Of a stretch of 64,000 nucleotides of DNA, positions 30,533 through 52,542 are shown in pieces (the stretch's first letter is position 1; each line of letters starts with the position of its first letter). A model generated the notes under the pieces. The model was not told the DNA's origin and did no database searches. It was given only the letters and a program-made list of their open reading frames with translations. The position numbers and the translations under genes are program-made. This DNA comes from Terriglobia bacterium (GTDB taxonomy: Bacteria > Acidobacteriota > Terriglobia > Bryobacterales > Bryobacteraceae), in NCBI GenBank assembly GCA_963819125.1, contig CAWFUQ010000009.1:13813-77812 (forward strand). The letters are read 5' to 3'.

Positions 30533-30638
30533 GTGTTTTGGTCTTACGCGGAAACCCGCAACCGTGCGGGAAGATCAACCCTATACGCTCGGCGTTCGTC
30601 TGTCAACTTGCAGGGTGTGAGATTTTCTTGAGAAACTT

Positions 30639-35087: not shown

Positions 35088-35177
35088 CTGAATGGGCGGC
35101 GCAAGTGACCGGCGATTCGTCGCGGGCCCAGAGTCTGCGTAACCGCTTTACTCCCCGAGAAACGGCAGCGCGGTCGT

Positions 35178-35957: not shown

Positions 35958-36065
35958 CGACGCTCCTTACCGAGTAACGGTGATTGAGTGATTATAGACT
36001 AGGCACCCGATCGCGCTACTCACTTCATCAGACCCTCGCGTACAGGTTCCATTACAAGCGGATAG

Positions 36066-36491: not shown

Positions 36492-36511
36492 GCCGCCACC
36501 TCGTCTATGAT

Positions 36512-36874
36512 TTACACGATCGTCCCGCACTCGGGACAAAACCTGGTTCCCTCTTGAAGTTGTGCACGGCAATGGGAGCACGTATTTTGGGGCTGGAATG
36601 GCTTGCCGCATGCGGGGCAAAACTTGGCGCCCGTCGATCGCGTGCCGCAACCTGAACACACGGAAAGAGCCCCGCCGTTCGCGGGAGGCGCGCCGGGCTG
36701 CGGAGCCCTCGGGCGGTCGAATCGAGTCAACCACCAGCCGACCAGGAGCGCGATGGCTACGAGACCGAGGCCGATTGCCCAGTCGCCAGCCGAATCGGCT
36801 TTGATCGCGATGCCGGCGATGAATACTACCAGCCCCACGATCCCGAGGATCTGTCCCGAAGTCCAGCCTTTCAT
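36512..36874 (-). CDS. membrane protein with C-terminal double zinc ribbon (paralog)
   Basis: Two TM helices are followed by CSGCGTRSTGAKFCPACGKPF...CSHCRAQLQEGTRFCPECG. The architecture matches 36066..36491. Confidence 0.65.
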   Translation of the reverse strand: MKGWTSGQILGIVGLVVFIAGIAIKADSAGDWAIGLGLVAIALLVGWWLTRFDRPRAPQPGAPPANGGALSVCSGCGTRSTGAKFCPACGKPFQPQNTCSHCRAQLQEGTRFCPECGTIV

Positions 36875-36959
36875 TTAGACCAATCCTCAACCACGCGCGA
36901 GCCTAAACTTCGGGCTCCGCAGTTGCGGCGGAATCGGGCTCGACCGCTCACCGCATGTT

Positions 36960-38219
36960 TCATTTCGCGGCAGGGATTTCCTTCATGTCCTCGCAGGCTT
37001 TTCTCTCTCCACCTGCACACGCCTTGCGATAGAGTTCCAAAGCACGAGCGTAATCCCGCACCACGCCCTTGGCGTCCCGATAACGGGCCGCAGCAGCAGC
37101 GCACCCTTCCGCGCTTCCCGCGTCGCATGCCTGGACGAACATCGCCGTCGCGTAGCTCTGACTGTCCTTGACGCTCTTGCCGTTCACCCCGAACAGCGAC
37201 ATCGTCCTGGCCCGATCGACCAGCTCGTCCACCTTTTTCACGGCTTCACAACTTGCGGCGCGGCCGGCCTCACACGCCTTTCGATGGAGCTGCATCGCCT
37301 TCACCGGGTCTGGTGCCGTCCCGCGCCCTTCCGCATTCATGACCGCGGCCTTGCCACACGCTTCCACATCGCCGGCATCGCAATTCCGTTCGTAGAACAG
37401 GCGATCGAATACATCTCTACCCTTCTCAGCGTCGGTTTGGGCTCTCCCTGGCTGGTCTTTCAGCAATTTCGTGGGATCGAAATCGCGATGTTCGAAGTCG
37501 TAATTTGATTTGTCCTCGCGTGCCTTCTCGGCGGCTTTCCGCTGCTGATTTTTCATGACCGTCCGCACGGCGACGATCGACAACACCAGAGCCACGACTA
37601 CGCCGGCAATGACTAGCCACACAGTTCCCGAGGACTGCGCACGTCCCGGCGCGCCGGCCGTCATTGCCAGCAAAGGCTTCCCGCATTTTGGACAGAACTT
37701 ACCTCCTTGTCCGGGCGCTCCGCAAGCTGCGCAGAATGACGGTGCTTGGACCACGGCGGCGGCCTCCACGGGAGTCTCCATGGCAAAGCGCGGCGTTTGG
37801 TCCACGACGACGGGCGGACTCGCTTGGTGCTGAAATATTTCCCGGGCGGGCGAAAAGTAGATCAACCCCAGGGTCAATCCGTTCAGCAGCGTCAAGCAGG
37901 TTTCGCAGAGGTCGGTCCAGCCGGTGGTGACGAATGGTCCCAGCAACAGGGACAAGAGCTGGACCACGATGGTGGTGACCAGATAAAAAACGGGCGCCCC
38001 ACGCCAGACCACGAAAAGACAAATGTTCGAGGCCAGATAAGCGAGAGCGAACCCGATCGCCAACACCGTGGCGCCCGGGACGATGAGATCTTTGTTCGCA
38101 GAGATGCTCTGCAGCGCGAAAGGAAGTGACGAGCTCGTCAGGTACGAGGCGAGCCCCATCGCCAGTCCCACGGGAATCTGCAGCAGAATCAGAAGTCGAA
38201 GCAGGCGTTTCGCAGGCAT
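36960..38219 (-). CDS. polytopic membrane protein with zinc ribbon, TM and Sel1-like C-terminal repeats
   Basis: Start at MPAKRLL. A 4-TM N-domain is followed by FCAACGAPGQGGKFCPKCGKPL, a TM helix and Cys-containing Sel1-like repeats (ACEAGRAASCE, ACDAGSAEGCAAAAARY, ACAGGERKACEDM). Confidence 0.7.
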   Translation of the reverse strand: MPAKRLLRLLILLQIPVGLAMGLASYLTSSSLPFALQSISANKDLIVPGATVLAIGFALAYLASNICLFVVWRGAPVFYLVTTIVVQLLSLLLGPFVTTGWTDLCETCLTLLNGLTLGLIYFSPAREIFQHQASPPVVVDQTPRFAMETPVEAAAVVQAPSFCAACGAPGQGGKFCPKCGKPLLAMTAGAPGRAQSSGTVWLVIAGVVVALVLSIVAVRTVMKNQQRKAAEKAREDKSNYDFEHRDFDPTKLLKDQPGRAQTDAEKGRDVFDRLFYERNCDAGDVEACGKAAVMNAEGRGTAPDPVKAMQLHRKACEAGRAASCEAVKKVDELVDRARTMSLFGVNGKSVKDSQSYATAMFVQACDAGSAEGCAAAAARYRDAKGVVRDYARALELYRKACAGGERKACEDMKEIPAAK

Positions 38220-38230
38220 AGTCGCTTCAC

Positions 38231-38780
38231 TCACAGAAAAGATTTGCCGCACTGCGTGCAAAATTTCGTTCCATCATTGGCGGTGCCGCAGGCTGGGCAG
38301 AACAGCACCCGTCTTGCCGCGACGTGTGGGCGCGGCGGTGCGGGTGTTGCGGGGGCTGGTTTCAGGTTCAGGCCGTCATACTGCTCCTTGAGCGGCGAGC
38401 TATAGATCATCATGAAGATGACTCCCGTCAGCACAACATTCGCCGAATGAAAAAAAATCCATCGAGCCGCTTCTGACCAGTGGCCCATGGACAATCGACA
38501 CGAGAATCGAAATCAAGTTGACGCCCGCGTACAGCGGCCGCGCGACATTCGAAAAGGCGCACAGACCGATACCCGCGCCGACCAGACCGATGAACAAGAT
38601 CAGGAAGGCGAGAAGGTCGACCCTGGATCCGAACCGAGCGGATAGCGGAGAGACGTCAGCCAGCGACGCCGCAAATTCTCCAAACAATCTGGGAGCGGAT
38701 AAGCTGATCGAGACGCGCTGCCCGATCCAGAGCGCCGCCTGAAGCGCCACCAGCATTCGAAGAATGTTTTTCGTTGGCAT
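38231..38780 (-). CDS. paralog of the N-domain plus zinc ribbon of 36960..38219, frame broken at an A8/T8 run
   Basis: ORFs 38400..38780 and 38231..38494 join into one paralog-like protein if one base is removed from the 8-nt homopolymer at 38460..38467. GPLVRSGSMDFFHSANVVLTGVIFMMIYSSPLKE aligns with GPFVTTGWTDLCETCLTLLNGLTLGLIYFSPARE. Confidence 0.55.
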
Positions 38781-38849
38781 ACCGGTTTCCGTCGCGACTG
38801 AGCTACTATATCGCGATCCAATCCGTAAGACCCCGCGCTGAGCCGTTCA

Positions 38850-39472
38850 TTACAGCCCGGACACGGGTGCTGAGACGATTTGCCACCCGCCTGCCTCCAG
38901 CCACATCCGGGTCACCTTGGCGGCATCGACGAAGCTGGCGCGGGCGAGGACGGGTCGCGGATGAAGAATCCGGTGATCTCTTCCGACAGAGCGTCTCGCG
39001 CCACGCCCTCGATCAGGACGGCATGGTTGGCTTCGATCATGCTGGGCTCGTCGGCGCGATCCCATAGCTCGGCTGCATTTACGAACGCGATGACATTCGA
39101 GCCCGCCTCGATATTCTGCGCCAAGTCCTCGAGCGAGTGTCCGCGCTCGGAATCGGCGGGCGCGTCGGAATTCGCAAGCAGACGGAGCAAATGATCTTGA
39201 GACACTCCCCCAGAAAGCGCGACGTCGGATGCGTCGTCGCACCAGCCGAGGTGCATGCCGCGAGTCACCAGATCGCCCTCCGAAAGTGCCCTGCCTAGGT
39301 AGAGCGCGCCCGCCGCCAGACTGCTGGTGTTCTCGAACCCGAAAGGATTGCTGAGCTGCGGCGTCGATTCCGCGGTCATATCCACGCCTGCCACGGTCAT
39401 GTCGCGGCCCCGGATCACCTCGCGGCGGACCGAAACATCGACTTGAAGCGGAACCTCTCGAAAATTAGACAT
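38850..39472 (-). CDS. papain-fold peptidase-like protein, Cys->Ser variant (paralog of 50680..51390), C-terminal frame break
   Basis: GFENTSSLAAGAL aligns with GFQGTCGLCSCEN, SLEDLAQNIEAGSNVIAFVNAAELW with TLEDLAGNIEQGRGVIIGVNAGVLW, and NHAVLIEGVARD with NHAITVTGVARD. The tail ASFVDAAKVTRMWLEAGGWQIV (like AKFVDAAMMREGWEEVGGSQVV) is in another frame, with the shift near 38935..38950. Confidence 0.6.
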
Positions 39473-39490
39473 AGAACATAACCTCCAATC

Positions 39491-40225
39491 CTAAGCAGGG
39501 CTCCAATTCAAGTTCCGAATCACCTTGCCACATGCGGTTCGCAACGCGCTCAAACTTCCCCGCGCCATGTAGCGGCGATCGGAATCCAGGACGATCTTGC
39601 GGAACGCCTCTTCTTCCGCCGCGGTCAACGGCTGCGCGGAGTCGGAAGCAGCCCTCGTGAGCGCCTCCGCAATCGCCGCGGGACTGCCCATCTGGTCGCG
39701 ATGATTCACGAACAGGTACGCACGCAGCTTGGGAATCGCCCGGCAATGGAGCACCGCGCAATGGGACCCACTGATCCCCAGCGTCTTCCCGATCTCATCC
39801 CATGACGCTTCGGCATGATTCAATTTCTCGAGTACGCAGTGCGATTCCTGGCCAGTCAATTCACCTGCTTCCGCAGCCCTGGAAAGCATGGACCGCAGGA
39901 AATCGGCTGACATCGCCGGCTCCGGCGCCACCTTCTTCGCAACCAGTCCGGGATTGCTTTCTGCAACTGTTTCAAGAGGTGTATCCCGGACCCGCTGCCG
40001 CACCAGCCGTTGAATCGCCCGGTTGATTTCGTTCCGCGCGATCTTCTGTACCCATTGGCTGAAGGGGCAATCGCCGCGAAATGTCGCCGAGCCTCGCCAG
40101 GCGCGAATGGCGACCTGTTGAACGACATCGCTCGCGAGCGCCGGATTGGACAATGCGTACCGGCACGCTCGTTCTACATGGACGGACGCTTCGCGCCATT
40201 GAGTCTCGAACTCTTCGCTGGTCAT
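39491..40225 (-). CDS. ECF-type sigma-70 family factor with ~70-aa C-terminal extension
   Basis: MTSEEFETQW...; region 2 is ASDVVQQVAIRAWRGSATFRGDCPFSQWVQKIARNEINRAIQR; region 4 is LTGQESHCVLEKLNHAEASWDEIGKTLGISGSHCAVLHCRAIPKLRAYL. The ATG overlaps a TGA in the neighbouring frame (GGATGACC). Confidence 0.75.
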   Translation of the reverse strand: MTSEEFETQWREASVHVERACRYALSNPALASDVVQQVAIRAWRGSATFRGDCPFSQWVQKIARNEINRAIQRLVRQRVRDTPLETVAESNPGLVAKKVAPEPAMSADFLRSMLSRAAEAGELTGQESHCVLEKLNHAEASWDEIGKTLGISGSHCAVLHCRAIPKLRAYLFVNHRDQMGSPAAIAEALTRAASDSAQPLTAAEEEAFRKIVLDSDRRYMARGSLSALRTACGKVIRNLNWSPA

Positions 40226-43200
40226 CCGCTTCCAAATACGTCGAGCGCCTTGCTCTCGGCGAGACCGCTTCGTTGGGATAACAACACGAGAAGCCGGTCG
40301 CGCGCGGCGATACTGTCGGCACCCGGCATCTTTGTGTTCGTCAACAAGCAATAGAGCCACGCCTGGCGGACGGCGCCGTCGGCGGGCTGTCCCGAGATCG
40401 CTCCCCACGGATTGCATGGCCGCGACCGTGGCGCGTTCCACAGATAAAATAGCTTTCTCGGGCGGATCCTGCATGACGAGCGGAAGCACTTGCCGCGTCA
40501 AGCCGCCGATGTGAGCAGCGACGAAAGAGAACATGAGGCAACGCATCGGGCACGCTTCGCAGCCAGGCTCCTCTCGTGGAGGCCGGTTGGTGACGGTCGC
40601 CACGAGCTGTTGATGAGCCTGCTCGAACGCATGACGCTGTTCGTCGTTCAACGCAGAGGCGCGCAGCCACCCAATCAGAAACGGACCGAGTGCGCGCGAC
40701 GCGGCTTCGCGCGTCAATCGATTCTCGGGAAGCAGTCCGCTTTCCGGAGTCAGCGCGCGGCGGCTCTCCAGAAAAACACCGAGCCAGTCGTGGACCGCCG
40801 AGGCCGCGGCGCAATACTCGATTCCAAATCCGCCATCGAGACGCAGACCGGACAATGCGCGGAGATCGGCACGCCAGGTATTCCACGCCGCCCACGCGCT
40901 GGCCGCGTCACCGAGCAAGAGATGTTCGCAGAACGCCGTCAGGCTCCTCTTCACGCGATCCCATCCGCGCGCCTCCTCGAGCGGCGTCAGAAAATCGCAA
41001 GGCGAGGCGCACCACTGGCAGCCTGCGTGTTGGCGGAGGTGGGCGCGCTTCTCCGGATCTGCCAGACGCGCCAGGTCGCGAACCTGATGATCGGTCAGCG
41101 CCTCTACGCGCGCTCCTTTCACCGGCAGGATCCGCACTAGAATCGCCGAACCGATTCGCTCATCATGAACGGCGGCCTGCCCGGTCGGCAGCGCGTTGAG
41201 ATGTCGGATCTGCGGCTCGCTCAGATTCATGCAGCTTCCGATCGCGTGCCGGTCCTCGGAGTCCAGGAGCTGATGCGCGATCTTGAGGTAGGAGTTCTTG
41301 AGAATCTCCGGCGCCAGCTTGCTGGGAATCTGGTCAGCGATGACGAAGCCTTCTCCATAAGCGCGCATTTCGGCGAGCATGTTGGTGAACATCGAAACGG
41401 CTTTCCCGCGCGGGTCGCCTGCCTCCGCGGAGACGCCGCCGCGTGGGGCTTCCAGCAGCCGGTGCGCCTCTTCCACTAGCGTCAAATGCTGCAGCCGCTC
41501 GCGCTGGTTTTCCGGCAGGTCGCGCTGTCGCGCTTCCGCGTATTGGCACAACAGGACAAACAACAGCGCCATGACGAAAGATTTTTCGTCGTCATCGCCT
41601 AGGTCCTGCAATTCCACTACCGCCGGCCGGGAAAAAATGGATTCGAGCGGCGTGGATCTCCTGGTGTTGAGCGCCAGGCCTTTGTTGCCGACCATCAGGC
41701 TGCGCAGCCGCGAGCGAAGTGCCGCGCCCATGTTCTGATGAATCTCCTGCCCATATTTTTTCCTGGCCAGCACGACCTCGATTTTGTCATGCAGATCCTG
41801 AAGATTAGGCGTTAGCGCGCTCAAATCGTCGAGCGAGGGACGATCTCCGAGAGAGGCGTTGCCGGAGTCGTACAGGCTCCAGCCACGCTCCGTGTAGATC
41901 TCGAGCAGCGCTTCCTCCAGCACGTACTGCATTCCGGCGAACATCGAAAAGGAGGCGTTAAAGACCGCCTTCAACATATCGATATGCCGTCCGAGAGGAA
42001 CGCCCTGCACCGGCGCCAGCGGATTCAGCCGGAGCGGGAGGGTAACCCCGCCACCAAAACCGAAGACGCCGAGCTTGCCTTTCAATTCTGGGGTCTGCAG
42101 CAGCCGGCGATATTCGCTCTTCGCCGGCTCGAGCACCAGGAACGGCACGCGCAGTTTCTCGAAAGACTCGAGGAGAATCTGCATGCACGTATTCGTCTTT
42201 CCGCTGCCGGGCGTTCCGGTGACGAACACGTGCCGGTTCAGCGATCCCGCGGGAATGGCAACCGGGCTCAGATCGCGGCTGAGTTCGTCCTGGAGGACGC
42301 CGATGGTGATCGAATCGGACTTGGGCGCCGGGACCGAGAGAGCGAACTCGCTGAAATCGCGCATCGGCAGACCGGGGATCTCGCGCTGCGGGGGCGTCAC
42401 CAGTACCGACAGCTCTTCGCAATCGAGACAGGTCGCCAGGGCGTCGAAGGCCGGTCCGAGCGGATGCCCCTGGTCGCCGGAGGCAGGCCGCATTTCCAGA
42501 ATGCGTCCGTATTCAATGCCGTTGCGCACGGACTCATCAGGGGGAGATAGGATACGCAGCGGATCGAGCGCGGAAGCATCGCCGCCGCCGAGACCGCGCA
42601 ATCCGCCGGCGACCGCGTGAACCGCAGCGTCGCTTTCGGCCACCAGGTACACTGCTGTTTGCCAGCATCCGCTGCCGCGGGCCCGGATCAGACGGTCCGT
42701 GTACTGTTGGATCATCTGCTCGCAGGCTTCGGCATGGGCGTCCAGCAAATCGACCCCGCCCGATTCGGACCAGTTCGTCCCGTCCTGGATCTGGCTTGCT
42801 CTGCCGGTGCTGTCCCGGCGTCCCGCCAAGTTCGCGGCAGTCATGGTTGTATTGAGCGCCGCGACGAATGGCATGGCGTTCATCCCTAGAGGAAGGGCGA
42901 CCAGGCTGGAGAAAGCCGCCACACTCGAAAGACAGAGCGGGAGATCCTGCAGCCACCGGTTCTTCTTCTGTGTTTCCTCAGTCTCGGTACGCGACTCGGA
43001 TTTCGATCCACCCTGCACCCGCTGCACCGTGCGCCGCACGTAGGCGTGCATCTCGCTCTTGAGGCGCCGGCAGATGTCGATGGCATCATCGATCGCCTCC
43101 GCTTCCAGGGGCCGGGCGACCAACATCAGCGCATAAGGCTGATCGCCGACGGCGGCCACCAGCCGGTCCAGACTCTGGAAGCTCGATGAGGGATCCTTCG

Positions 43201-43753
43201 ATCGCCGGGAGGGTATCCCGGTCATCACGCGCGTCGCTGGGGCATCGCGCAGGAAGGAAGCCAAATCCGGGAGGTCCTGCTGAGTGAGGCCGGCGAGCGG
43301 CCCGAATTCGAGCCCGTTCAAGTGTGAGCGGTAGGCGCTCTCCTGCATGGAGAGATAATCTTCCGTCGATCGCGCTCCGGCGCCGATGATGCGCCGGCCG
43401 CCCACGTACAGACGATGGCGGCCGCGTGAGCCATGAAGAATCACCACGAGTGAGTGCCCGGGATCGGAGCATGCCGTCAACACTTGCGGCATGGCGCGAG
43501 CGAAAATTCCGGGCTCCTGCGGGCGGCCCAGGCCCGTCACTTCGCGCAGCAGCGGACGCGCAATGTCGCCAGTTCTCGGCTGGATGTTCCAGTCAGCAGC
43601 CCGAAAGTGCGAGAGATACCTTCGTTCCAGAACCGACACCAATGCCTGCGGCAGACCTTCGGTGAATTGCACCTCGGCGGCCAGCGAGGGTCGCGCGGGC
43701 TCAGCGGCCGCGGATACCGCGACAGGCTGCGCCGGACGGGGATCAATCGGCAT
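40222..43753 (-). CDS. large HerA/FtsK-superfamily (DUF87-like) ATPase with ~480-aa unknown N-domain and Cys-cluster C-domain; apparent frame break near 40385..40395
   Basis: Walker A VFVTGTPGSGKTN, Walker B HLTLVEEAHRLLE, and GEGFVIADQIPSKL. The C-terminus has CQWCASPC and CEACPMRC. The last ~55 codons (GQPADGAVRQAWLYCLLTNTKMPGADSIAARDRLLVLLSQRSGLAESKALDVFGSG*) are in a different frame with better third-position GC. Confidence 0.8.
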
Positions 43754-44900
43754 CGACGTTTCCTCGTTCCCATGGCGGAATCAGCGGGGCTGGAGATGGC
43801 GAAGATTCCAGGTCAGGTTGCGCGAAGGTGGACGCCTCAATCGCGGGCATGGAATCGAGGAGCATTCCCGAGGGATGCTCGCCCAACTCGCCCCACCAAG
43901 TCGCTCCCGCGGCGACATCTTCGGCCGCTGCGCCGCTCCGCCATACCGGGGCCAGCGCGGCTGCGATTCTTTCGGCGAACGGCCAAACGGAACCCAGCCC
44001 GCCCACTAACAACAGTTCCGGCGAGTCACTTCCGATGGCTCGCAGCGCTCCTCGGATCGCGTCTGGAAGCTGCTGCGAGAACGAAACGAATTCGGGCCAA
44101 GCCGTGCATTCCCGATAAGAGAGTGACAGCGGAGCGTATAAGCGCTCCTCGAAGATCTCGCGCCACTCAACCGGTTGCTCAGCGCTCGATTGAGAAAGGC
44201 GCGCGGCGTAGCGGGCGGCCGCCTCGCGAAGGGGTCGTTCGAAGCCGGTTCCGGGTTCTTCGTTCAGCCGCTTGCGCACCAGGTCGAGCAGCCGCCGGTT
44301 CCAAGCGGACTCGCCGGCTTCCTCGATCGCCTGGGGGGCGCTGACAGCCGCGATCGACGGGAAGCCACGGCTGTCCCATTCAAGCCAGAAGGCAGTCACG
44401 AGAGTGGACGTCTCTCCCACAGCGATTGCGACGACGGCTTTCTGTTTGGCTGGTTCGAGCGACCGCGATGCGAACCAGCGGCACAGCAGCGCATGCGTGG
44501 CCGGAAGAACCGTGATCTCATCGAACCCCGCGGCGCGGGCCAAAGCGTCGACCGTATGCGCCTCCGTTCGAAAATTCGATCCCTGCAAAGCGATCGCGAG
44601 ACGGTATCCGTTTTTTCGCACGGGCGCGAGCCGGCCGAGATAGGCGGATAGACGGCGATACGCTCCCTCCCAAAAAAGACGGGCACCGGGCTCCTCGACC
44701 CATGCGCCGTTTCCGGAGGCGGTCCACAGAGGGGCATGTCCAGCCGCGCGGCTGCCCCAATCTCCCGTGCCCGCCACGGCGTTCGGAATTTGTGCGCGGA
44801 CGCCGTCGCCGACCAAAGCAACGTGCGCACCTTCATCACCCTCCTCGCGTAAAGCGATCACTGTGACGGAAGGCTGGTAATCCACGCCGAAGGTATTCAT
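43743..44900 (-). CDS. degenerate actin/Hsp70-fold (ASKHA-like) protein
   Basis: MNTFGVDYQPSVTVIAL, VVAIAVGETSTLVTAF and ELLLVGGLGSVWPFAERI sit where the phosphate-1, phosphate-2 and adenosine motifs would be. The stop overlaps the ATPase start by 11 nt. The fold assignment is tentative. Confidence 0.5.
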   Translation of the reverse strand: MNTFGVDYQPSVTVIALREEGDEGAHVALVGDGVRAQIPNAVAGTGDWGSRAAGHAPLWTASGNGAWVEEPGARLFWEGAYRRLSAYLGRLAPVRKNGYRLAIALQGSNFRTEAHTVDALARAAGFDEITVLPATHALLCRWFASRSLEPAKQKAVVAIAVGETSTLVTAFWLEWDSRGFPSIAAVSAPQAIEEAGESAWNRRLLDLVRKRLNEEPGTGFERPLREAAARYAARLSQSSAEQPVEWREIFEERLYAPLSLSYRECTAWPEFVSFSQQLPDAIRGALRAIGSDSPELLLVGGLGSVWPFAERIAAALAPVWRSGAAAEDVAAGATWWGELGEHPSGMLLDSMPAIEASTFAQPDLESSPSPAPLIPPWERGNVDAD

Positions 44901-44966
44901 CCGGCGAACCCTTGTTTCCATCCCCGCGGCGTCTCCGTGACGAAAGGGGCGGCCAGTTTGGCTGCT

Positions 44967-46569
44967 TCATCTGCCAGTTCTCGAAAGGCGGCTCTGCGCG
45001 TCCCGAAGCCGCCGAAGAGCGGTTTCATCGGGCATCGGACAATCCGCGGGCTGCAGCGAATAAAGCCGATCGAAACCCTCCAGGAGGCGCGGGCCGCGGG
45101 ACTGCATCGCCGTGATCAGGTTTTCGATCAGCCGCTGGATCTCCGCGCGAACGGTGGCCAGCCATTGCGGCGGACGGCCCAGCTTCTCGCCGACGAATGC
45201 AGGAATGGCCGCCACCACCGCATTGACGCCGCCTGCTTCGATTTTTTCAAGAAACCGGATCGGAAGAGCCGGCGGACAAGTCTGGCTCAATAAATACTCG
45301 GTCCACTCCGGATTCAAAGGCGCTTCGCCGCTTCGTCGCAACGTTTCACCGGCATGTTGAATCATCCGCCGCGCGGCGGCATCGGCGACGGCGGCGATTT
45401 CGCGATTCAATTCCTCCGCGTGGATTCCGCCTGAAGCCACTGCCACATTCGTCAGTCGTGATGAAATGCTTGCGCCGCAGGCTTTCGCGCCAACGGAGAA
45501 ATCCTCCAGGAATTTTTCGATAGCCTTGGACAAGGATTCCGCGAGTTGGCGCTTTCCCTCCGCACGGCGATCCACTTCCGCTGCCTCAGCTTCTTGCCGC
45601 TCGAAATCAGCCACCGCTTGGGCAGATGGGTTCTTCGAGCCGCGACGCACAATCCCGCAGCGCTGCCGCAGCGCGCCATAGCCGCGTCCGCATCACGCGT
45701 GGATGAAATCGCAGAATCCACTTGCACCATGAATCCCAGAAGATCCGCGCCGCCAAAGGTGTTCTGTCCGGATTTGCACATCGCACGCCCGCCACCGGCA
45801 GGATGGTGGGAGGCGCTTGTTCCGGAAAGCCCATATCCGGAGACGAAATGGCACACTTTATTGATCAACTGCGGAGCGCTTTTAGACAGGAACTGTTCCC
45901 ACTCCGCGGGACTGTCGGTACGAAGAAATCCATTCAGGATGAAGATCACCGAAGCCGGTCCGGATTCCTGGACGTGGCTCGCGAGGAATTCCATCTCCAC
46001 CTGCGAAAGGAGCTGGCGCGACGTCAGCACCCACGCCAACACATCCGAGTACGCGGCCGACCGGCGCGTGCGTTCGTCCATCTCGGGAGTATCGTTGTAT
46101 CCGGGCGAATCCACCCAGCACGCGTTGGCTGGAATCACGGAATCCTTGAGAACGATTTCGGCACGTTCGATAGCCGCCACCTCGCTGCGCCGCTCTCCAC
46201 GTTCCGAAAGCAATGTGATTTCGGCGCGAATGGCTTCAGTGGAGCAGGGGATCGCGCGCCTTGCTCCCGCTTCGATGACAACGGCGCCATCCTCATCGCC
46301 ACTCAGCAAGCAACAGATCGCGCCGGTATCGGGCACATCGTCGACCGGTAGGATGTCGCGCCCGACCACCGCGTTCATCATGGTCGATTTGCCGGCCTTG
46401 AACACGCCCCCGAAATTCACGGTCACCTGTTCTTCCCCGATCACACGTGTGAGCTTCCAAGCCGCGTCGCGATATCCGGAGCGTCGGCCTTCGTCATCGC
46501 AGCGAGTTCCTCGATCCGGGCATTCAGATCCTGCACAGCTTCTTTCGAAACACCAGCACAAAAAATCAT
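44967..46569 (-). pseudogene. dynamin-like GTPase 2, reading frame broken at least three times
   Basis: ATG at 46569 gives MIFCAGVSKEAVQDLNARIEELAAMTKADAPDIA. The GTPase domain lies in a second frame (GGVFKAGKSTMMNAVVG, WVDSPGYND). The helical C-terminal 227 aa lie in a third frame (ORF 44967..45650). Confidence 0.6.
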
Positions 46570-46577
46570 GCGGCTCT

Positions 46578-48591
46578 TTACGCTGTCTGCTGCAAACTCA
46601 CATTGAGCACCGTAAGCTCCTGCCGCAGCGCCCCGACCCGGCGCAACGATTGATCGAGCGAGGAAAGCATCCGCGCTTTTTCCGACTGGCTTCGCCGGTT
46701 GTTTTCGGCGATGGTGCGCAGATTTCTCTCTTTCCCTCGATGATGGTCAGCACCGCGGCGCTGATGTCCGTAGCCAGCTTGTCAATGTACGCCCCCGTTT
46801 CCGATTCGATCGGTGGAGCATAATTTTTCACCCACTTCATCGAGCCGAGGCAGGACGTCGTCGAGCGCTTTCTTCTTGACTCTCTGGGTGAGCCCGATGG
46901 TCCCGCCGACTACGTTCGCCACCATCCCTGCGCCGATGCCCCACAGCACCAGGTAGGGCAGTCCGAACCATCCAAGAGCGGCTACCGCTGCCAGGCGCGC
47001 GGCGATATTGAAGCTCAATCCGCGAAATCCGGTGGATAGCCCGGTCAGTGTCGTGAAATCCTGAAAGAGAACCAGTCCAACCACGGTCGACCACGCCCGT
47101 TCCTGATCGCTGATCATCTTATTGTCCGCTCCCGGTTCGAGTTTCCAGCCGGTCACCTGGAATTGGACATCGTCGAACTCGCGCTCGATCGCCGCCACCT
47201 CGTCCTGAACTTCCCGCAGCAGCGCTTCGAGGCCGGGCTCCAGAATTTTCTGCGCCGTGTCACCTTCCGCTGGCGGTTCCGTTGCACCAGGAGAGAACCT
47301 GCTCGCTGATCTGGCGTTCGCAGAACGAGTATGCCTCGGCCAACATTTCCTTCTGATGCGCGAGCGCCAGAGCCGTATCGGACGGCAGCTTTTCTGCCAT
47401 GAGCCGATCGGGAAGGGTTTGTTTCAACTGCACGGTTACCATTCCGAACCCGGCACGGATGTCGCGCAGGCTCTGGTCGCGGTACCGCCGGAAGATCTCC
47501 GGTAGCCGTTCATAACGCTTGCGAATGTCAGCCAGTTGCGGTTGAATCGCTTCGAACGCGACCCGCAATTGTTCGGTGTCGGCCTGCAGCGCGGCTTGCC
47601 GCTGCCGGACCTGCTGCTCGATGGTGACCGCCGAGTTGTCCGCCGCTTTCAGAAAACGATCGATATGAACGCGCTGCCGGTCGTGGACCAGGAACTCGCC
47701 GAGTTTCGCTTCAAAGCCGGCCAGACCCGATTGCTCCATCTGCCTCGCGTCAGCCAGCAACTTGCCCTGCTCCGCTTGCCTGGCGTCTACGAAGTAAATG
47801 TCGCGGCTCTTGAAATCCTGCGGAGCGTCGGCGCTGCCGCCAAAGTCCGTCACCAGACGACGCCACACAAAACCCTTGAAGCGATCATCCACCGCACGGC
47901 CATCCTGCAAATTCACCACCGTGAAAACGCGTGTTCCCGAGTTGGTGAGCGTCTCGTGCACGAACTTCCGCTCGTCCTCGCCGGCCAGGACGTCGCTGCG
48001 GTACACGACGATCGCCACGTCGCACTTGCCGATCGCCTGCCGCGTCACTTCGGTGCGCTCGGGGATATCGTCGGTGCCGGGCGAGTCGATGATCGTGACG
48101 CCGGATTGGCATAGCTCAGCCGGAAAGCCCATCTCGAATTCACGAATCTTGCGGAAGAAATCGCGCGTTTCGCTCTCGTTCTCGCGTACCGTGCCCTCGC
48201 GCCGGTACTTTTCTAGCGACCAGTCTTCTGAGTTTCCATCAAAACCCCATGCGCGAACAGTGGGCCGCTCGGCGTAATGAATGGAGGTCAGCGTAGCGGT
48301 GCACGGCAGCTCGCCAACCGGCATGGGGCCCTGGCCGAACCCGAGCTCGGGAACCGGCCTTGTGGAGCCACCAAGAAGCGCATTCAGAAGGGTCGATTTA
48401 CCGTTCTTAAAGCGGCCCGTGACAATGATCTGAAAAGTATCCGACGCCAGCCGTTCGGCGGTTTGCTCCAGCCGGGCGGCGGTCTCTTTCATATCGAGAC
48501 TCGACGCCAGCGTTGTCAGATCGAGAATTGTTTTGCGAGCCTGGGTTTTCGATCGTCCAAATTCCTGTTCCAGTAATTGCTTCAGAACCAT
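46578..48591 (-). pseudogene. dynamin-like GTPase 1 (BDLP-like, ~670 aa) split over four frames
   Basis: G1 is GRFKNGKSTLLNALLG and G3 is IIDSPGTDD. ORF 47260..48591 continues sensibly into 46782..47198 (hydrophobic paddle LAAVAALGWFGLPYLVLWGIGAGMVANVVGG). It then continues into 46598..46840 and into a fourth frame ending ...LRQELTVLNVSLQQTA* at 46578. Confidence 0.7.
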
Positions 48592-48610
48592 CGATGCGCT
48601 CCATCCTACC

Positions 48611-50116
48611 CTATAGCCTTTGCCTGTACAACAACAACTGAGCTCGATCCAACTCCGCGGCCGAATCTCCGTCGGGAACCTTCATCGCCTGTGCGTAGGC
48701 GGCATCCAATGTGGTCTCGATCGCGCTTAATTCCGCAGCCAGGCGATCGCGGTATTCGGCGATCGCGCCCTGGATCGCGGTCCTCGATTCGGGGATCGCT
48801 TGGCGCGTCATCGCATGAATGGCTTGCCGCGCCGCCTGAGCGGACTGCTCGAAGGATTGGCCGCGCCGCGCGATACCCAGCGCCGCAAGCAAGCTGGAAA
48901 CGGCGACCGTCGCGACCAGACCGGTGCTGAGCGCCGCGGCTAAACCGAACAGCGCCACGACACCGGTCACTCTATCCTGCCACTCCGGTCCTGAGGTGGT
49001 GTGCTCCAGCGCGGGAGCGTGCGGATCCACCGGAATTCTCAGCGACACCGCAGCCGGCCGCGCGGGATTTCCCGCCATCGCGTGAACGAAGTCCCAATCG
49101 ATTCGATCCAGCAGCGTCTGCGTTTCGAGGATGATCCCGGCGACCCGCTGATCGAGTTCCACCTCCAGGCGCAGCCGCCATGAGGTCATCCCTTCTTCGA
49201 TGCACTTTTCCAGCAGCGACTGAAACTTGCGGCTGTAGACATGAGTGTCCTTCCACAGTCCGGACTGTCCCTCCCGCACCTTTTCGATCCGCCGTAGCAG
49301 ATCCTGTTCGAGCGCCAGCAGCGAGGCGGCTACCTGGGCCGAAAGACTCGCGGCGTCGCCATCCATGCGGCGCGCCACGCGGCTTCGAACTTCAGCGACT
49401 TCAACTCGCGCGCGGCGCAGGCGGCCGGCATCGCCGTCGCGGGCCGGATGTGTTGCCGGCGTGAATCCTTCCGCGAAGTCCAGCAGCCGGGACACTTGCG
49501 CGCGATCCAGCAATTCGACATCGGGATCGGCCAGAGGCCGCCGCAGCAGCGCCGCCAGTTCCTCCGCGTCACGGCGGCAGCGGTCGCGCAGAAATTCGTT
49601 GGGTTCGGAAGCGCTCCACAAGTAGCACTGATACGCGAGGAGATCCTGCCGCTGCCACTCGCGTTTTGGATCGGGAACCACCAGCCGCCAGATGGCGCGT
49701 TCCATCTGGTCCAGATCCTCCGGCGATTTGAGGCGTTCCGCGTGCGTGAATACGATCGCGAAGGATTCGAGAGGCCGCGTCAGGAACTGCTCCGCGATAG
49801 CCGTCGCCGCGGCTGCATCGAGTGCGCGGCCGCACTCGAAAACGGCGACCAGCTTCGTCGCGAACCACGCGCTAAACGGCGGCGCGGCGATCTCCCCGAT
49901 GGGGGCTTCCGTGATTTCCGCGGGATCGGCCGTTTGCTGCATCCAGTTCCGCAGCGGTGTAGCGTCCACGCCAGCGCCGTGCGCGAGCAGGATCTCCCGC
50001 CGCGTCCTGCGAGACAGAATCGCCGCCGCAAGATCCTCGACGGATTTCCAGCCGCGGCGCGCCGCCAGGTCGCGTATGCCCTGGACAACCTCTTCGTTAA
50101 TGGATGCTGCCGTCAT
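48611..50116 (-). CDS. dynamin-like paralog with degenerate P-loop and hydrophobic paddle
   Basis: 501 aa. LLAHGAGVDATPLRNWM sits where G1 would be, with no GK[ST]. There is a helical stalk, a paddle-like VTGVVALFGLAAALSTGLVATVAVSSLLAALGIA and a C-terminal helix. The layout matches the two downstream DLPs. Confidence 0.55.
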   Translation of the reverse strand: MTAASINEEVVQGIRDLAARRGWKSVEDLAAAILSRRTRREILLAHGAGVDATPLRNWMQQTADPAEITEAPIGEIAAPPFSAWFATKLVAVFECGRALDAAAATAIAEQFLTRPLESFAIVFTHAERLKSPEDLDQMERAIWRLVVPDPKREWQRQDLLAYQCYLWSASEPNEFLRDRCRRDAEELAALLRRPLADPDVELLDRAQVSRLLDFAEGFTPATHPARDGDAGRLRRARVEVAEVRSRVARRMDGDAASLSAQVAASLLALEQDLLRRIEKVREGQSGLWKDTHVYSRKFQSLLEKCIEEGMTSWRLRLEVELDQRVAGIILETQTLLDRIDWDFVHAMAGNPARPAAVSLRIPVDPHAPALEHTTSGPEWQDRVTGVVALFGLAAALSTGLVATVAVSSLLAALGIARRGQSFEQSAQAARQAIHAMTRQAIPESRTAIQGAIAEYRDRLAAELSAIETTLDAAYAQAMKVPDGDSAAELDRAQLLLYRQRL

Positions 50117-50122
50117 GGCGCA

Positions 50123-50647
50123 CTACTTCTCCAGCCATTCGAAGAAATCGGGCACGATGGCGCGATACTGCGGCTGAAGCGGCTCCGGAAGAAGTTCCGT
50201 CAACATCGACGCAAGGCTCCGGCGCTCGATCGCATCCCCTGGTTCGCCTGCGAAAAAGCGCGGCGTCAGAGTCTCCAGTTTCTCTTCCATAGTCTTCAAC
50301 GATTGACGCAGCTCGTCTCTGGTGATCGCGACGCGCGGCAACGTGACCGCCTCGAATTTCGCGCCCGATGGAAAGGTAATCGACTTCGTCAATGCGTAGA
50401 CCATCAGCCGCCCGCCGTAGGCTGCCACTACCCACCAGCGGTCTGGGGCGCTTTGCTGCATGGGCTCCTGCGGCCGCCGCAGCGCCGCGGCTGCGAAGTA
50501 GGCGTAGGAAGGCTCGCCCCATTTCATCGTCGGTAGCGGCAGTGAGATGGCATGCTCGGTGGGAATTTCCGAGCGGATCAGGAAGTGGGTCTTCTGAAGC
50601 TCGCGCAGTTCCGCGTAACTCATGAGATGTTTTTGGATGGTTGTCAT
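50123..50647 (-). CDS. small hypothetical protein (174 aa)
   Basis: I prefer the start at MTTIQKHL because GGAGAG lies 6 nt upstream. The ORF track opens at 50752, which overlaps the peptidase gene. There is a 6-nt gap to the next gene and no known domain. Confidence 0.5.
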   Translation of the reverse strand: MTTIQKHLMSYAELRELQKTHFLIRSEIPTEHAISLPLPTMKWGEPSYAYFAAAALRRPQEPMQQSAPDRWWVVAAYGGRLMVYALTKSITFPSGAKFEAVTLPRVAITRDELRQSLKTMEEKLETLTPRFFAGEPGDAIERRSLASMLTELLPEPLQPQYRAIVPDFFEWLEK

Positions 50648-50679
50648 ATCTGCTCTCTCCGCTTGGTCCATATGGTTTG

Positions 50680-51390
50680 TTAATTCGGCAAAGCCTTGGA
50701 AAAGGGGCGGCTTTCCGCGGTCACAACCTGCGATCCGCCGACTTCTTCCCAACCCTCACGCATCATGGCAGCGTCCACGAATTTTGCGGCTTCGCCTGTT
50801 CCGCTGTCATTCACGAAAAAGCCCTGAATATCGCCGGTCGCGGGATCGCGGGCTACTCCTGTCACCGTGATTGCATGATTCGATACGTTGCCGCTGTCGG
50901 CGTTCGCGTCATTCCAAAGCACGCCGGCATTGACCCCGATGATCACTCCCCGGCCCTGCTCGATGTTGCCGGCCAGATCCTCCAGCGTTCCGCCATGAGA
51001 CGCGCTGGAGGGGACACCGAGACGCGTGAGGATGTCGGCACGCCCTTCCGCCGTGGTGCCTCCGTTCTTGGCCGGGTCCGGATCGTCGCATGAGCACAGA
51101 CCGCGCGTACCTGCGAAAAATACCAGGTCCGATTCCGTTACTTCCAGTCCGAACGACCGCAGAACATTTTCGCATGAGCACAGTCCACAGGTTCCCTGAA
51201 ATCCGCTGAAACTGTCGCCTTGCCGGTGCGTAAATCGTTTGTCCCCTTCCGGGTCGCCGATCACCACGGTCTCACGGCCGTCCGGAAGCACGTCCACGTG
51301 GGACGGCACCTCACCAGTGCCGAAATCGCTGAAATTGGGCACATCAGCAGGTACGTCCCGGATGAAATCGTCTTTGAATCTGTCTTCCAT
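50680..51390 (-). CDS. papain-fold cysteine peptidase-like protein
   Basis: A Cys motif (GFQGTCGLCSCENVLRSFG), a His motif (NHAITVTGVARD) and a downstream D/N (GFFVNDSG) suggest a C-H-D/N triad. No signal peptide. I cannot assign the family by eye. Confidence 0.65.
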   Translation of the reverse strand: MEDRFKDDFIRDVPADVPNFSDFGTGEVPSHVDVLPDGRETVVIGDPEGDKRFTHRQGDSFSGFQGTCGLCSCENVLRSFGLEVTESDLVFFAGTRGLCSCDDPDPAKNGGTTAEGRADILTRLGVPSSASHGGTLEDLAGNIEQGRGVIIGVNAGVLWNDANADSGNVSNHAITVTGVARDPATGDIQGFFVNDSGTGEAAKFVDAAMMREGWEEVGGSQVVTAESRPFSKALPN

Positions 51391-51452
51391 CGCGTCCTCT
51401 CTTTACGTCTCCTACCGCCTTCAATCCTTCAGACCCCCGATCAGGGCCGCCC

Positions 51453-52328
51453 TTACAGCTTGTTGGAACATTTCTCCGTCAATGCTCCTAAGAGATAGGC
51501 ACTTGTCCAGATCGCCGCTGACATCAGGGGGAAGAAGAGGATGACGCCGATTCCGCTCAACGCGGCGATCGCGGTTATCGAAATGACGGCGGCCATCATG
51601 CACCACAGCAACACCAGAAACTTTGCGAATCCAAAGAAATGACGGAAAAGCAGGGCGACACACGCCGGAAGGTTAAAGAAGCTGCCGGCCTTTCCCGTTT
51701 GCGAGAACCGGACGACGGCAGCGCTGAATACCGGCAACGCCAGCGAAATGTACCCGAGAACAATTACCGGTCGCCACCACGATAGTACGAGCTGCGCGTA
51801 CAGCATTTCCCATAAGGGAGGACTCGCCTGGCCCTGCAGATGGTGCCACAGCCATAGTGAGATTTGGAGAGCGAGGGTCCACAGTCCGAACGAAGCAACC
51901 CACCAGTACAGCATCACAGGCAGCATTATATAGAGCCAGAAGAACGCGACGACGATCGCGCCATCCGTCAGAAAGCGGCCAAGATCGTTTGGCTGCGGCA
52001 AAGATTCCGGCATGCGACGGCTCTTTCTCCGGACCGCGTCGATCGCCCATCCGGCGCTGAGAAACATTCCCAGTGGAATCGGCAAAGGAAGCCACCACAG
52101 GAACGTCATCCACAGACTCCGGATCCATTCGCGTCGATAGAACGGCCAACTGACGGAATTTCCAGCGTACGGCGTCCGCCAGATCATGCTGAGCGGCACC
52201 CAGTCCTGAAGCGCGTCGGTTTTCGCCAGGTCGGATAAGCCCACCCTGCCCTCGAACAGGAACGCCCTTATTTGCGTGTCCGAGTACGGGCCGTACGATT
52301 GGCCTGTCCTATGGATGAAGTAATTCAC
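51453..52328 (-). CDS. GYF_2 (DUF4339)-like domain fused to a polytopic membrane domain
   Basis: A GTG start gives VNYFIHRTGQSYGPYSDTQIRAFLFEGRVGLSDLAKTDALQDWVPLSMIW, followed by about 6 TM helices. The ORF track opens further upstream at 52544. Confidence 0.65.
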   Translation of the reverse strand: MNYFIHRTGQSYGPYSDTQIRAFLFEGRVGLSDLAKTDALQDWVPLSMIWRTPYAGNSVSWPFYRREWIRSLWMTFLWWLPLPIPLGMFLSAGWAIDAVRRKSRRMPESLPQPNDLGRFLTDGAIVVAFFWLYIMLPVMLYWWVASFGLWTLALQISLWLWHHLQGQASPPLWEMLYAQLVLSWWRPVIVLGYISLALPVFSAAVVRFSQTGKAGSFFNLPACVALLFRHFFGFAKFLVLLWCMMAAVISITAIAALSGIGVILFFPLMSAAIWTSAYLLGALTEKCSNKL

Positions 52329-52542
52329 CGTTTCGACCCTTCCCGATCGTCGATGAGAATGACCCTGGCAAGTCCGCAAGCTTACAACATTCTGCGAATT
52401 TGCCGCGAACTTTCTTCGCCGCTGCAACCTGCTCGGGCAGAACCTGTGCATGCCCTCGTCCCGAGGCGATTTGGAAGGTCGATGTATAATCACCGCTGAC
52501 CTGGACACCCCAAAAGGAAATCGTGGCTCGGATGTCGAACAC

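Follow-up and report, generated by a model that had tools for sequence, protein, structure and literature searches.

Dynamin-like proteins (DLPs) are widespread in bacteria, and both their functions and their partners are largely unclear. Among the closest described counterparts of the locus analyzed here is the defence system Eleos (formerly 'Dynamins'), or LeoABC of enterotoxigenic E. coli, in which several dynamin paralogs are encoded per operon, one of them without a working GTPase, and membrane paddles are present; the trio found here, made up of a full dynamin, a GTPase-bearing dynamin and a GTPase-less paralog, resembles LeoA/B/C. Bacillus subtilis DynA and mycobacterial IniA/IniC are dynamins reported to be involved in membrane protection (against phage or antibiotics) or vesicle release. 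HerA/FtsK-type ATPases with Walker motifs form the core of other systems, namely SIR2-HerA/Nezha, DUF4297-HerA and MADS (mad8). Nearest in concept are the DO-GTPase/GAP1 conflict systems of multicellular bacteria, which exist with and without Hsp70 and tubulin; pairs of paralogous GTPases, sometimes joined by peptidases and a protein made up of the Hsp70 nucleotide-binding domain (NBD) only, are predicted to work there at or close to the membrane, chiefly in complex bacteria such as actinobacteria and cyanobacteria; dynamins are unmentioned in that paper, and HerA appears in its reference list only (Kaur et al. 2020, PMC7159879). The subject of this report is a locus found in 64,000 nucleotides of DNA from a Terriglobia bacterium of the Bryobacteraceae (assembly GCA_963819125.1, contig CAWFUQ010000009.1, positions 13,813 to 77,812; this whole stretch is hereafter the window), in which three dynamin paralogs are encoded with an Hsp70-like protein, a VirB4/HerA-type ATPase, a papain-fold peptidase and its small partner, and a sigma factor of the extracytoplasmic function (ECF) type, in a gene order shared by nine phyla.

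The module spans 38850-52328 of the window and comprises ten genes, all on the minus strand and arranged head to tail, as a first-pass annotation made from the letters of the sequence had proposed. In the direction of transcription, and with the promoter-like motifs preceding the first two genes, its parts are:

52361..52386, minus strand: ECF-type promoter-like motif P1, TGTAAG-N16-GGTCAT with its -10 part off consensus, 33 nt before the start of the GYF gene
51453..52328, minus strand: GYF_2 + DUF4013 membrane protein (Pfam GYF_2 27.7 bits, DUF4013 37.2 bits)
51432..51457, minus strand: predicted operon promoter, the ECF-type motif P2 (TGTAAG-N16-GGTCTG), 42 nt ahead of the peptidase ATG
50680..51390, minus strand: papain-fold (C39-like) Cys peptidase, 236 aa, cytoplasmic (Pfam, PDB, motifs)
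50123..50647, minus strand: p175, the peptidase partner, 174 aa in the window, without a recognisable fold relative
48611..50116, minus strand: p520, GTPase-dead dynamin-like paralog, 501 aa (hhalign against the DLPa profile)
46578..48591, minus strand: DLPa, BDLP/mitofusin-type dynamin-like GTPase with paddle; about three frameshifts in the window copy
44897..46569, minus strand: DLPb, second dynamin-like GTPase, without paddle; several frameshifts in the window copy
43743..44900 (alternative start 44921), minus strand: Hsp70-NBD-like (ASKHA) protein, 385-392 aa depending on the start (profile against Hsp70 NBDs)
40222..43753, minus strand: VirB4/HerA-type P-loop ATPase, ~1177 aa (profile and Foldseek)
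39491..40225, minus strand: ECF-like sigma factor, 244 aa (Sigma70_r2, TIGR02937)
38850..39472, minus strand: pseudo-peptidase pep2, 207 aa once a missing A at ~38935 is restored (alignment; intact in short-read contig L093)

The genes are tightly packed. Read 5' to 3', the first five junctions are gaps of 62, 32, 6, 19 and 8 nt; the last three are an 11-nt overlap of the Hsp70-like and ATPase genes, the overlap of the sigma ATG with the ATPase stop (ATGA), and an 18-nt gap. All these agree with the first-pass annotation, which had erred at a single junction: the DLPb stop overlaps the ATG of the Hsp70-like gene by 4 nt in an error-free short-read contig (L094), instead of lying 45-66 nt away from it. 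The domain calls made at that stage (two dynamins, a dynamin paralog without P-loop, an Hsp70-like protein, a VirB4/HerA ATPase, an ECF-like sigma and a Ser-variant copy of the peptidase) held as well.

Gene order was compared across genomes starting from the ATPase, for which ~80 close homologs of 1100-1200 aa are available; a scan of one genome per species gave 390 relatives, the best 80 of which were taken. All module proteins were mapped onto 29 orthologous loci carrying at least 8.5 kb of upstream DNA. The order peptidase, p175, p520, DLPa, DLPb, Hsp70-like protein and ~1150-aa ATPase recurs in nine phyla, and synteny is kept in 28-29 of the 29 loci. Order and strand of the components present are maintained in 28 loci, the exception (L034, Phycisphaeraceae) carrying the peptidase, p175 and sigma genes on the opposite strand. 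The occurrence of each component in the set is as follows:

Hsp70-like protein: 29/29 loci
DLPa: 29/29 loci
DLPb: 28/29 loci
p520 (GTPase-dead paralog): 28/29 loci
p175: 28/29 loci
peptidase: 28/29 loci
sigma: 23/29 loci
pseudo-peptidase: 3/29 loci (L001, L006 and L015, besides the window)
GYF gene: 0/29 loci

Membership of the system is thus narrower than the ten genes first assigned to it, seven forming the conserved core and the GYF and pseudo-peptidase genes being lineage-specific. Dynamins were never found without the Hsp70-like protein and the ATPase in any of the 29 loci.

The system resides in Actinomycetota, Cyanobacteriota, Chloroflexota, Acidobacteriota, Planctomycetota, Armatimonadota, Abditibacteriota and Pseudomonadota, and in a reduced form in Nitrospirota. 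Hosts include Streptomyces, Nocardia, Kitasatospora, Microbispora, Actinoplanes and Lentzea, as well as Leptolyngbya, Rivularia, Anaerolineales, Blastocatellia, Thermoanaerobaculia, Holophagales, Planctomycetaceae, Phycisphaeraceae, Chthonomonadaceae, Fimbriimonas, Abditibacteriota, Nitrospira (reduced form), and a metagenome-assembled genome labelled Steroidobacteraceae, in which the locus closest to that of the window is found. Searched among 1.84 billion cluster representatives, the ATPase N-domain gave 427 matches at E<=1e-3 and 55 at E<=1e-30. The operon is horizontally spread, its distribution is patchy and the family is rare.

Three variants of the operon are informative. In Nitrospira, DLPa, the Hsp70-like protein and the ATPase occur alone; the Rivularia version lacks both DLPb and sigma; and an Anaerolineae locus (L045) has no dynamins, and is made up of the peptidase, p175, a 614-aa protein matching Pfam HSP70, the ATPase and an RDD/zinc-ribbon membrane protein. 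Judged by what stays together in these variants, the invariant pair is that of the Hsp70-like protein and the ATPase; the peptidase and p175 form one tight module and the dynamins another.

Further features were noticed around these variants and among more distant relatives. The reduced version of Nitrospira sp. (L089, GCA_029194665.1) lies amid several sigma-54 activator genes and a Peptidase_M48 gene, which hints that regulation has been swapped from an ECF sigma to sigma-54 in this lineage. In Rivularia sp. IAM M-261 a CHAT-nSTAND1 protein is encoded upstream of the module, and four conserved uncharacterised genes (201, 418, 1164 and 574 aa) plus one for an AAA+ protein lie downstream (L002:13511-20754); no Pfam domain was found in the 201-, 418- and 574-aa products, the three of the four that were scanned. 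Calothrix sp. NIES-4105 (L063:8592-11770) has what appears to be a decayed copy of a Rivularia-type locus, in which short, closely packed pieces of the Hsp70-like protein, the ATPase and two genes downstream share 86-93% identity with their Rivularia counterparts. Distant ATPase relatives (29-38% identity, ~900-1000 aa; L067:8279-16609, L074:9794-17605, L091:1457-11160) reside in other gene sets, none of which matches a PADLOC system. In Roseburia the set comprises a WYL/WCX regulator, the ATPase, three small proteins and a dynamin; on a mobilizable Anabaena plasmid, beside an integrase, an Hsp70 family protein, a 777-aa protein, GUN4, a GTPase and the distant ATPase; in Atlantibacter the distant ATPase is followed by four unknown proteins. 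Together these sets look like a wider superfamily of ATPase-plus-GTPase/Hsp70 systems.

No named system corresponding to the module was found in PADLOC, NCBIfam, Pfam or PDB, and two distant variants were also negative in PADLOC and NCBIfam. The gene set was not found described in the literature either, subscription journals being thinly covered, so that it counts as not found rather than as proven absent. The claim that no described system combines these parts has therefore stood up to all the searches made, and the gene set is regarded as a system of a new kind whose proteins belong to known superfamilies. Compared with Eleos, which is made of dynamins only, the present trio is locked to the Hsp70-like protein, the ATPase and the peptidase with its partner (28-29 of 29 loci), and to a sigma factor. 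PADLOC matches to Eleos are partial and weak (LeoA, E 1.5e-10; LeoBC, 2.3e-8 and 3.5e-5) and fall short of the system definition, and DLPa is closest by sequence to Nostoc BDLP; protection at the membrane level, without nucleases, is plausible for both systems. DynA and IniA/IniC act alone or paired, without ATPase, Hsp70-like, peptidase or sigma partners. As to the HerA systems, the SIR2 and DUF4297 effectors were found neither in the module nor among the neighbouring called genes, and the present ATPase is twice the size, with a ~480-aa family-specific N-domain, a Cys-rich helical C-domain and an Hsp70-like partner. VirB4 (TrwK) is its best Foldseek match over the N-terminal and ATPase domains, but lacks the Cys-rich C-domain; Pfam families for VirB3/6/8/9/10, the coupling protein and relaxase occur in no locus table, and the locus is accordingly no type IV secretion system by definition. 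In the DO-GTPase/GAP1 systems the GTPases belong to a separate TRAFAC family; no GAP1 counterpart was identified here, and the present system is without variable effector domains. The sigma factor recalls ECF sigmas with regulatory C-terminal extensions (ECF41/42/44 CorE, OrbS) and the ECF-controlled defence island DdvS/DdvA of Myxococcus in joining sigma-2/sigma-4 regions to a Cys/His extension and in being dedicated to an adjacent cluster with a conserved, presumably cognate promoter; here, however, no anti-sigma factor was recognised, and the genes presumably controlled encode a dynamin/ATPase machine.

The window copy carries at least eight frame changes, located in the genes for DLPa, DLPb, the ATPase and the pseudo-peptidase, and the first-pass annotation had cautioned that several members looked frameshifted. 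Short-read (Logan) contigs from run ERR11594403, L093 and L094, span positions 45784-36981 of the window and are 99.86% and 99.81% identical to it, respectively. Six single-base indels distinguish them from the window, five at frameshifts in module genes. These are an extra G in a G-run at ~40403 (ATPase), a missing A at ~38935 (pep2), and one extra base each at 45713, ~45625 and ~44984 in DLPb, all three absent from the short-read contig; the sixth is an extra T in a T-run at ~38450. In the short-read contigs the 3' half of the ATPase gene is intact through to its stop, as are pep2 (207 aa) and the last 294 residues of DLPb. The checked frameshifts of the module are assembly errors, the locus is intact in nature, and the caveat of pseudogenisation was dropped because all six checkable indels are absent from short-read contigs of the same population; decay was rejected also in view of the reading frames, which are conserved past each shift. 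The DLPa shifts and those in the 5' part of DLPb lie outside short-read coverage and are presumed to be assembly errors too. In DLPa, conserved frames resume after each shift (~47270, ~46810 and ~46740), and two of the three are at G- or A-rich runs, that at ~47270 being the exception.

Measured against the short-read contigs (36981-45784), indels occur in the window at ~1 per 1.5 kb, several of them in homopolymer runs, and other broken open reading frames in the window, such as that at 38400-38780, are likely artefacts as well. L086, assembled from a related population, shares 92% identity with the window but has 88 gap openings and is more fragmented still; a close relative with a name of long-read style ('np1212') is likewise fragmented.

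Two of the three dynamin paralogs have the signatures of dynamin GTPases. Dynamin_N scores 75.7 bits in DLPa and 64.4 bits in DLPb (cut-off 27), and the P-loop GKST is invariant in the alignments of both. DLPa also matches Dynamin-like_hel_bact (PF21808; 38.5 bits vs. a cut-off of 28.3), and its profile aligns over the full length with Nostoc BDLP (2J68, E 6.9e-58, residues 36-665), with a conserved hydrophobic membrane paddle. The DLPb profile matches the same structure (E 1.3e-20) over the GTPase domain and part of the stalk, and IniA is among the PDB matches of both profiles. DLPa and DLPb are members of the bacterial dynamin family, for which GTP hydrolysis and membrane binding or remodelling are predicted. 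The third paralog, p520, has no P-loop; hhalign against the DLPa profile (probability 96.4%, E 1.2e-9) gives an alignment that covers the second half of the GTPase domain and reaches on into the stalk, and PADLOC LeoBC is matched at E 3.5e-5. A hydrophobic paddle lies near residues 382-418, in a segment conserved in Streptomyces and Rivularia. To judge from these alignments p520 is a GTPase-dead dynamin paralog. Its profile hits in PDB, a designed helical bundle, viral F proteins and SmhB/AhlB, were rejected as coiled-coil or hydrophobic noise, the identity being settled by the hhalign comparison with DLPa. An exact look-up of the 501-aa sequence found nothing.

The Hsp70-like protein of the window has by itself no Pfam match, and was recognised through a 14-member profile, whose best PDB match is DnaK (8W1M, E 1.5e-4) and whose top 60 matches are all Hsp70 NBDs, aligned over up to residues 3-356. 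Its counterpart in L045 scores 25.7 with Pfam HSP70 (cut-off 20.6). The NBD is not followed by a substrate-binding domain, being instead extended by a disordered tail with a near-invariant C-terminal PPW(E/Q)R motif, and neither DnaJ nor GrpE is found in the locus gene tables, so that the architecture is not that of a canonical chaperone. The tail is reminiscent of docking tails, of which the EEVD motif in Hsp70 is an example. As for the start of the gene, exact look-up was empty for the 392-aa variant and found the 385-aa one. A possible link to BrxB, suggested by a weak match (E 0.05) of three Hsp70-like members, was discarded, no connection having been found in a 2026 BREX paper.

The ATPase belongs to the HerA/FtsK-VirB4 superfamily. 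It matches PADLOC mad8/HerA and Pfam DUF87, the latter annotated in most homologs and scoring 20.8 bits in the window copy, under the cut-off of 23.2; the best of the HerA structures matched by the profile in PDB is 9X1L (E 2.8e-10), and the Walker motif G-x-x-G-x-G-K and EEAHR are invariant, together with many further positions in the core. In an AlphaFold2 (AF2) model made from a homolog 84% identical to it (P0001, 1180 aa; mean pLDDT, the per-residue confidence, 81), an alpha/beta N-domain (~30-430) and a small beta unit precede the P-loop domain (513-880), which is followed by an all-helical C-domain (890-1170). The fold assignment made at first sight was borne out by Foldseek, which placed TrwK/VirB4 of R388 first (8RTD, E 1.8e-13, ~980 aligned columns), next to SIR2-HerA (1.4e-12); TM-scores to VirB4 are low (0.22-0.34), and those to HerA about equal. 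The C-domain (window 40222-41100) features two conserved CX2CX3C...C sets, which suggest two metal sites, for Zn or Fe-S. Together with the Cys/His set of the sigma factor they could be a sensing element.

In the peptidase the motifs QG..GTCGL, NHA and NDSG, corresponding to the Cys, His and Asp of a papain-fold enzyme, are kept in all orthologs, and the catalytic Cys is replaced in pep2, as alignment of the two shows. This part of the original assignment stood; the family match was less secure, since Pfam Peptidase_C39_2 (PF13529) is hit at E 3e-4 with 21.8 bits, under the cut-off of 24. In PDB a C39-like peptidase is matched (3ERV, E 0.009). No hydrophobic segment was found in the peptidase, p175 or sigma, nor a signal peptide in the first two. 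The p175 gene always follows that of the peptidase (28/29 loci), also in the dynamin-less L045. Its product has no match in Pfam or PDB by sequence; the AF2 model, an alpha+beta domain, is confident (pLDDT 90.8), and Foldseek against PDB found no neighbour (best E 0.045, TM <0.25). If the model is right, p175 would represent a new fold.

The sigma factor scores 32.4 bits with Sigma70_r2 (cut-off 24) and just passes TIGR02937 (43.0 bits vs. 42.9, model positions 7-165 of 165). Its orthologs form one family, marked by a conserved C-terminal extension of ~70 aa. Among the conserved Cys and His residues at the C-terminus (window 39491-39760), H160 and C232 are invariant, and C156 and C161 occur in 90% or more of the orthologs. 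Pfam and NCBIfam scans of the module turned up neither a known domain in the extension nor an anti-sigma domain. In most sigma-bearing loci the sigma gene adjoins that of the peptidase or pseudo-peptidase. A dedicated, translationally coupled sigma had been singled out in the window, and the overlap of its ATG with the ATPase stop is confirmed there. The gene is present in 23 of the 29 loci.

Alignment of the upstream DNA regions was uninformative. Enumeration of spaced dyads upstream of the first genes (TGTAA-N-GGTC) revealed a motif with the consensus (T/G)GTAA(T/G)-N16/17-GGGTCT upstream of the peptidase gene; in Streptomyces it lies between the sigma and peptidase genes. The strict pattern has nine matches in 688 kb of orthologous loci; all have the orientation of the operon, and seven directly precede the peptidase gene. 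The layout, an 'AAC-like' -35 and a 'GTC' -10 element, is that of ECF promoters, such as those of sigma-X, -W and -M in B. subtilis. When the 250 nt ahead of the peptidase gene were scanned in 27 loci with a fixed pattern (G[TC]AA-N17-19-GGTC), it was found in 20, comprising 20 of the 22 with sigma and none of the five without. Background is low, the 71 matches in 1.19 Mb corresponding to ~0.4 expected in the 27 upstream windows, and the chance that none of the five sigma-less loci would have the motif, were the 20 spread at random, is ~3e-4 (calculated from the counts). One locus counted as sigma-less, L017, has the motif with a spacer one base shorter, and its contig ends just past the ATPase, a downstream sigma being possible. 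In the window the strict motif occurs four times, always on the minus strand, where 0.77 are expected and one of 100 shuffles reaches four; a scan of 34800-52800 for sigma-70 promoters and terminators stayed at chance level. In three close Streptomyces loci (L004:2687, L018:2667, L021:2662) the relaxed pattern occurs a second time, close to where the peptidase and p175 genes meet, which may reflect the ~90% identity of those loci.

These data speak against the order of events first imagined, in which a sensor formed by the dynamins and the ATPase would have the sigma factor as its output. Because a conserved ECF-type promoter precedes the peptidase-to-ATPase operon, sigma is better read as its driver: an ECF-type sigma most likely drives the operon, and that encoded at the locus would be the one recognising the motif. 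In the window lineage the position of the sigma gene, at the 3' end of the operon, suggests positive feedback.

In the window the motif is also found beyond the module, along with genes for membrane proteins:

38829..38854, minus strand: ECF-type promoter-like motif P3 (TGTAAT-N16-GGTCTT), overlapping the pep2 end, 48 nt upstream of the next gene
36512..38780, minus strand: run of three downstream membrane proteins (Pfam Sel1, DZR; L093 gene calls)
~38231-38780, minus strand: first downstream membrane protein, 182 aa in the short-read contig but 126 aa in the window owing to the extra T at ~38450
36960-38261, minus strand: Sel1-repeat membrane protein (Pfam)
36512-36874, minus strand: double-zinc-ribbon membrane protein (Pfam DZR)
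36031..36056, minus strand: P4, an ECF-type promoter-like motif (TGTAAT-N16-GGTCTG), 73 nt ahead of the RDD gene
35178..35957, minus strand: RDD-family membrane protein with N-terminal double zinc ribbons (Pfam RDD 69 bits, DZR 57 bits)

The same arrangement is seen in L006, where pep2 is followed by the same motif and then by homologous membrane, zinc-ribbon and RDD genes (L006:14864-18155). The membrane genes at 36512-38780 probably share the regulon. From motif copies P3 and P4 and the L006 parallel, therefore, the functional unit in the window probably reaches from ~52386 to ~35178, past the limit of 38850 at which the module had been thought to end. The GYF membrane gene, lineage-specific and outside the conserved core, is probably part of the same regulon too, because motif P1 lies upstream of it.

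RDD genes lie beside the system in L006 and L045 (13170-14006, directly after the ATPase) and inside the operon in L090 (7793-8605). RDD-family membrane proteins, often with zinc ribbons, thus recur beside or inside the system in four independent contexts, and may be an accessory membrane anchor or sensor.

The outer flanks of the window locus (26077-32543 and 58129-60399) encode two Trans_reg_C-TPR regulators, a Laminin_G_3 protein and a TPR-repeat Ser/Thr kinase, but no integrase or transposase was found there. The recombinase relics said to flank the module were not found, either by tblastn with three tyrosine recombinases or by a Pfam scan of 20 flanking open reading frames, serine recombinases and transposases being covered by the Pfam scan alone.

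As to function, the reading put first, to which a probability of about 45% is given, is anti-invader defence or containment of membrane damage, comparable to the action of DynA or Eleos, rather than housekeeping. It is preferred because the operon is patchy, horizontally spread and rare, because dynamins and HerA-type ATPases both occur in known anti-phage systems (PADLOC matches and published reports), and because distant relatives of the ATPase are found in WYL, plasmid and integrase contexts. The more specific proposal that the locus stands for a new immune or damage-containment class, a machine which, once its sigma factor has switched on the dynamin trio, would expel, trap or seal off an invader (injected phage DNA or a conjugative channel, for example) at the cytoplasmic membrane, by membrane remodelling and translocation and not by nucleases or NAD depletion, is put forward tentatively and must be called doubtful.

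A mechanism of this kind might run as follows. The sigma factor would be held inactive through its Cys/His C-terminal extension, or by the adjacent peptidase or pseudo-peptidase, and be freed upon envelope or invader stress. Active sigma would transcribe the operon and, in the window lineage, also the membrane, zinc-ribbon and RDD genes and its own gene. The dynamin trio would assemble on the perturbed cytoplasmic membrane, and the Hsp70-like protein dock on a hexameric ATPase via its PPWER tail; the ATPase could then thread or remodel DNA or protein at the membrane site, and the peptidase, with p175, process a component or a target.

Several observations tell against the defence or containment reading and its mechanism. 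The roles given to the PPWER tail, the Cys clusters and the link between peptidase and sigma are speculation. The loci show no obvious toxic effector, be it a nuclease, an NADase or a pore former, and no slot for exchangeable effectors such as conflict systems typically have. Full-length orthologs are absent from the plasmid and phage collections searched, and the flanks are not consistently defence islands, housekeeping genes being found next to several loci (purA and glpX-type genes in L090) and TonB receptors in L001. Mean column identity of the ATPase is 46% across phyla, a figure which fits a cell-biological function as well as defence. On the regulatory side, the promoter is assigned from the motif; L011 and L024 have sigma and lack the motif, and the sigma gene precedes the motif in the majority of loci.

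Some of these points, the housekeeping flanks and the high protein conservation with no toxic effector, speak for a module of envelope stress or membrane homeostasis, in which sigma senses membrane or redox stress, the dynamins repair or reshape the membrane, the Hsp70-like protein and the ATPase extract or refold damaged membrane proteins and the peptidase degrades them. ECF sigmas classically control such regulons. Nostoc BDLP is closely related to DLPa over the full length, and the PDB matches include IniA, which in mycobacteria is a drug-induced dynamin; every neighbour in the window that is probably co-regulated is a membrane protein, and most of the host bacteria have complex envelopes or grow as filaments. 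The system is nonetheless very patchy and rare, and most relatives of the host genera do without it, as would hardly be expected of a general stress function; translocation of DNA or protein, and not protein quality control, is what the VirB4/HerA clade is known for, and distant relatives go with WYL regulators and plasmid or integrase contexts. This explanation is held to be rather unlikely, yet it is a serious competitor of the defence reading.

The fact that TrwK/VirB4 is the best structural match of the ATPase, its N-domain included, raises the question of whether the locus encodes an apparatus for secretion, vesiculation or DNA transfer, with the ATPase powering export, the peptidase maturing cargo and the dynamins pinching or fusing membranes. 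C39 peptidases typically process cargo, as in bacteriocin exporters, membrane paddles are present, and dynamin-like proteins are reported to be involved in vesicle secretion in M. tuberculosis. Yet VirB3/6/8-10, a coupling protein, a relaxase, an ABC exporter and a cargo with signal peptide are missing from every locus, the peptidase and p175 have neither signal peptide nor membrane segment, no conserved double-glycine leader is visible in p175, and the TM-scores to VirB4 (0.22-0.34) are similar to those to HerA. An export function is consequently regarded as improbable.

A still poorer account is that of an already named system, or of an Eleos/LeoABC system lying beside a HerA-based one. LeoA/LeoBC of PADLOC do match the three dynamin paralogs, and HerA/mad8 the ATPase, but the matches are partial and weak (E 1e-10 to 3e-5, over part of each model) and the SIR2/DUF4297 partner effectors are absent from the module; the seven genes co-vary as a block in 28-29 of the 29 loci, with translational coupling across the supposed boundary, and no such system is present in the literature searched or in NCBIfam. 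This makes the explanation very improbable. Chance juxtaposition, or a decaying cluster of pseudogenes, as the at least eight frameshifts of the window copy might suggest, has a negligible probability, given that the six checkable indels are absent from short reads, frames are conserved and synteny extends over nine phyla.

The operon is a fixed partnership of a dynamin trio with a VirB4/HerA motor, an Hsp70-like protein, a protease and a sigma factor, found across nine phyla that include growable and engineerable Streptomyces. It offers a testable system for how prokaryotic dynamins get recruited and coupled to other motors, and is a candidate for a membrane-acting mechanism of defence or repair. 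The sigma factor and its promoter motif provide a ready-made orthogonal switch and a route to the inducing signal, and p175, like the N-domain of the ATPase and its Cys-rich C-domain, is a fold or domain yet to be characterised.

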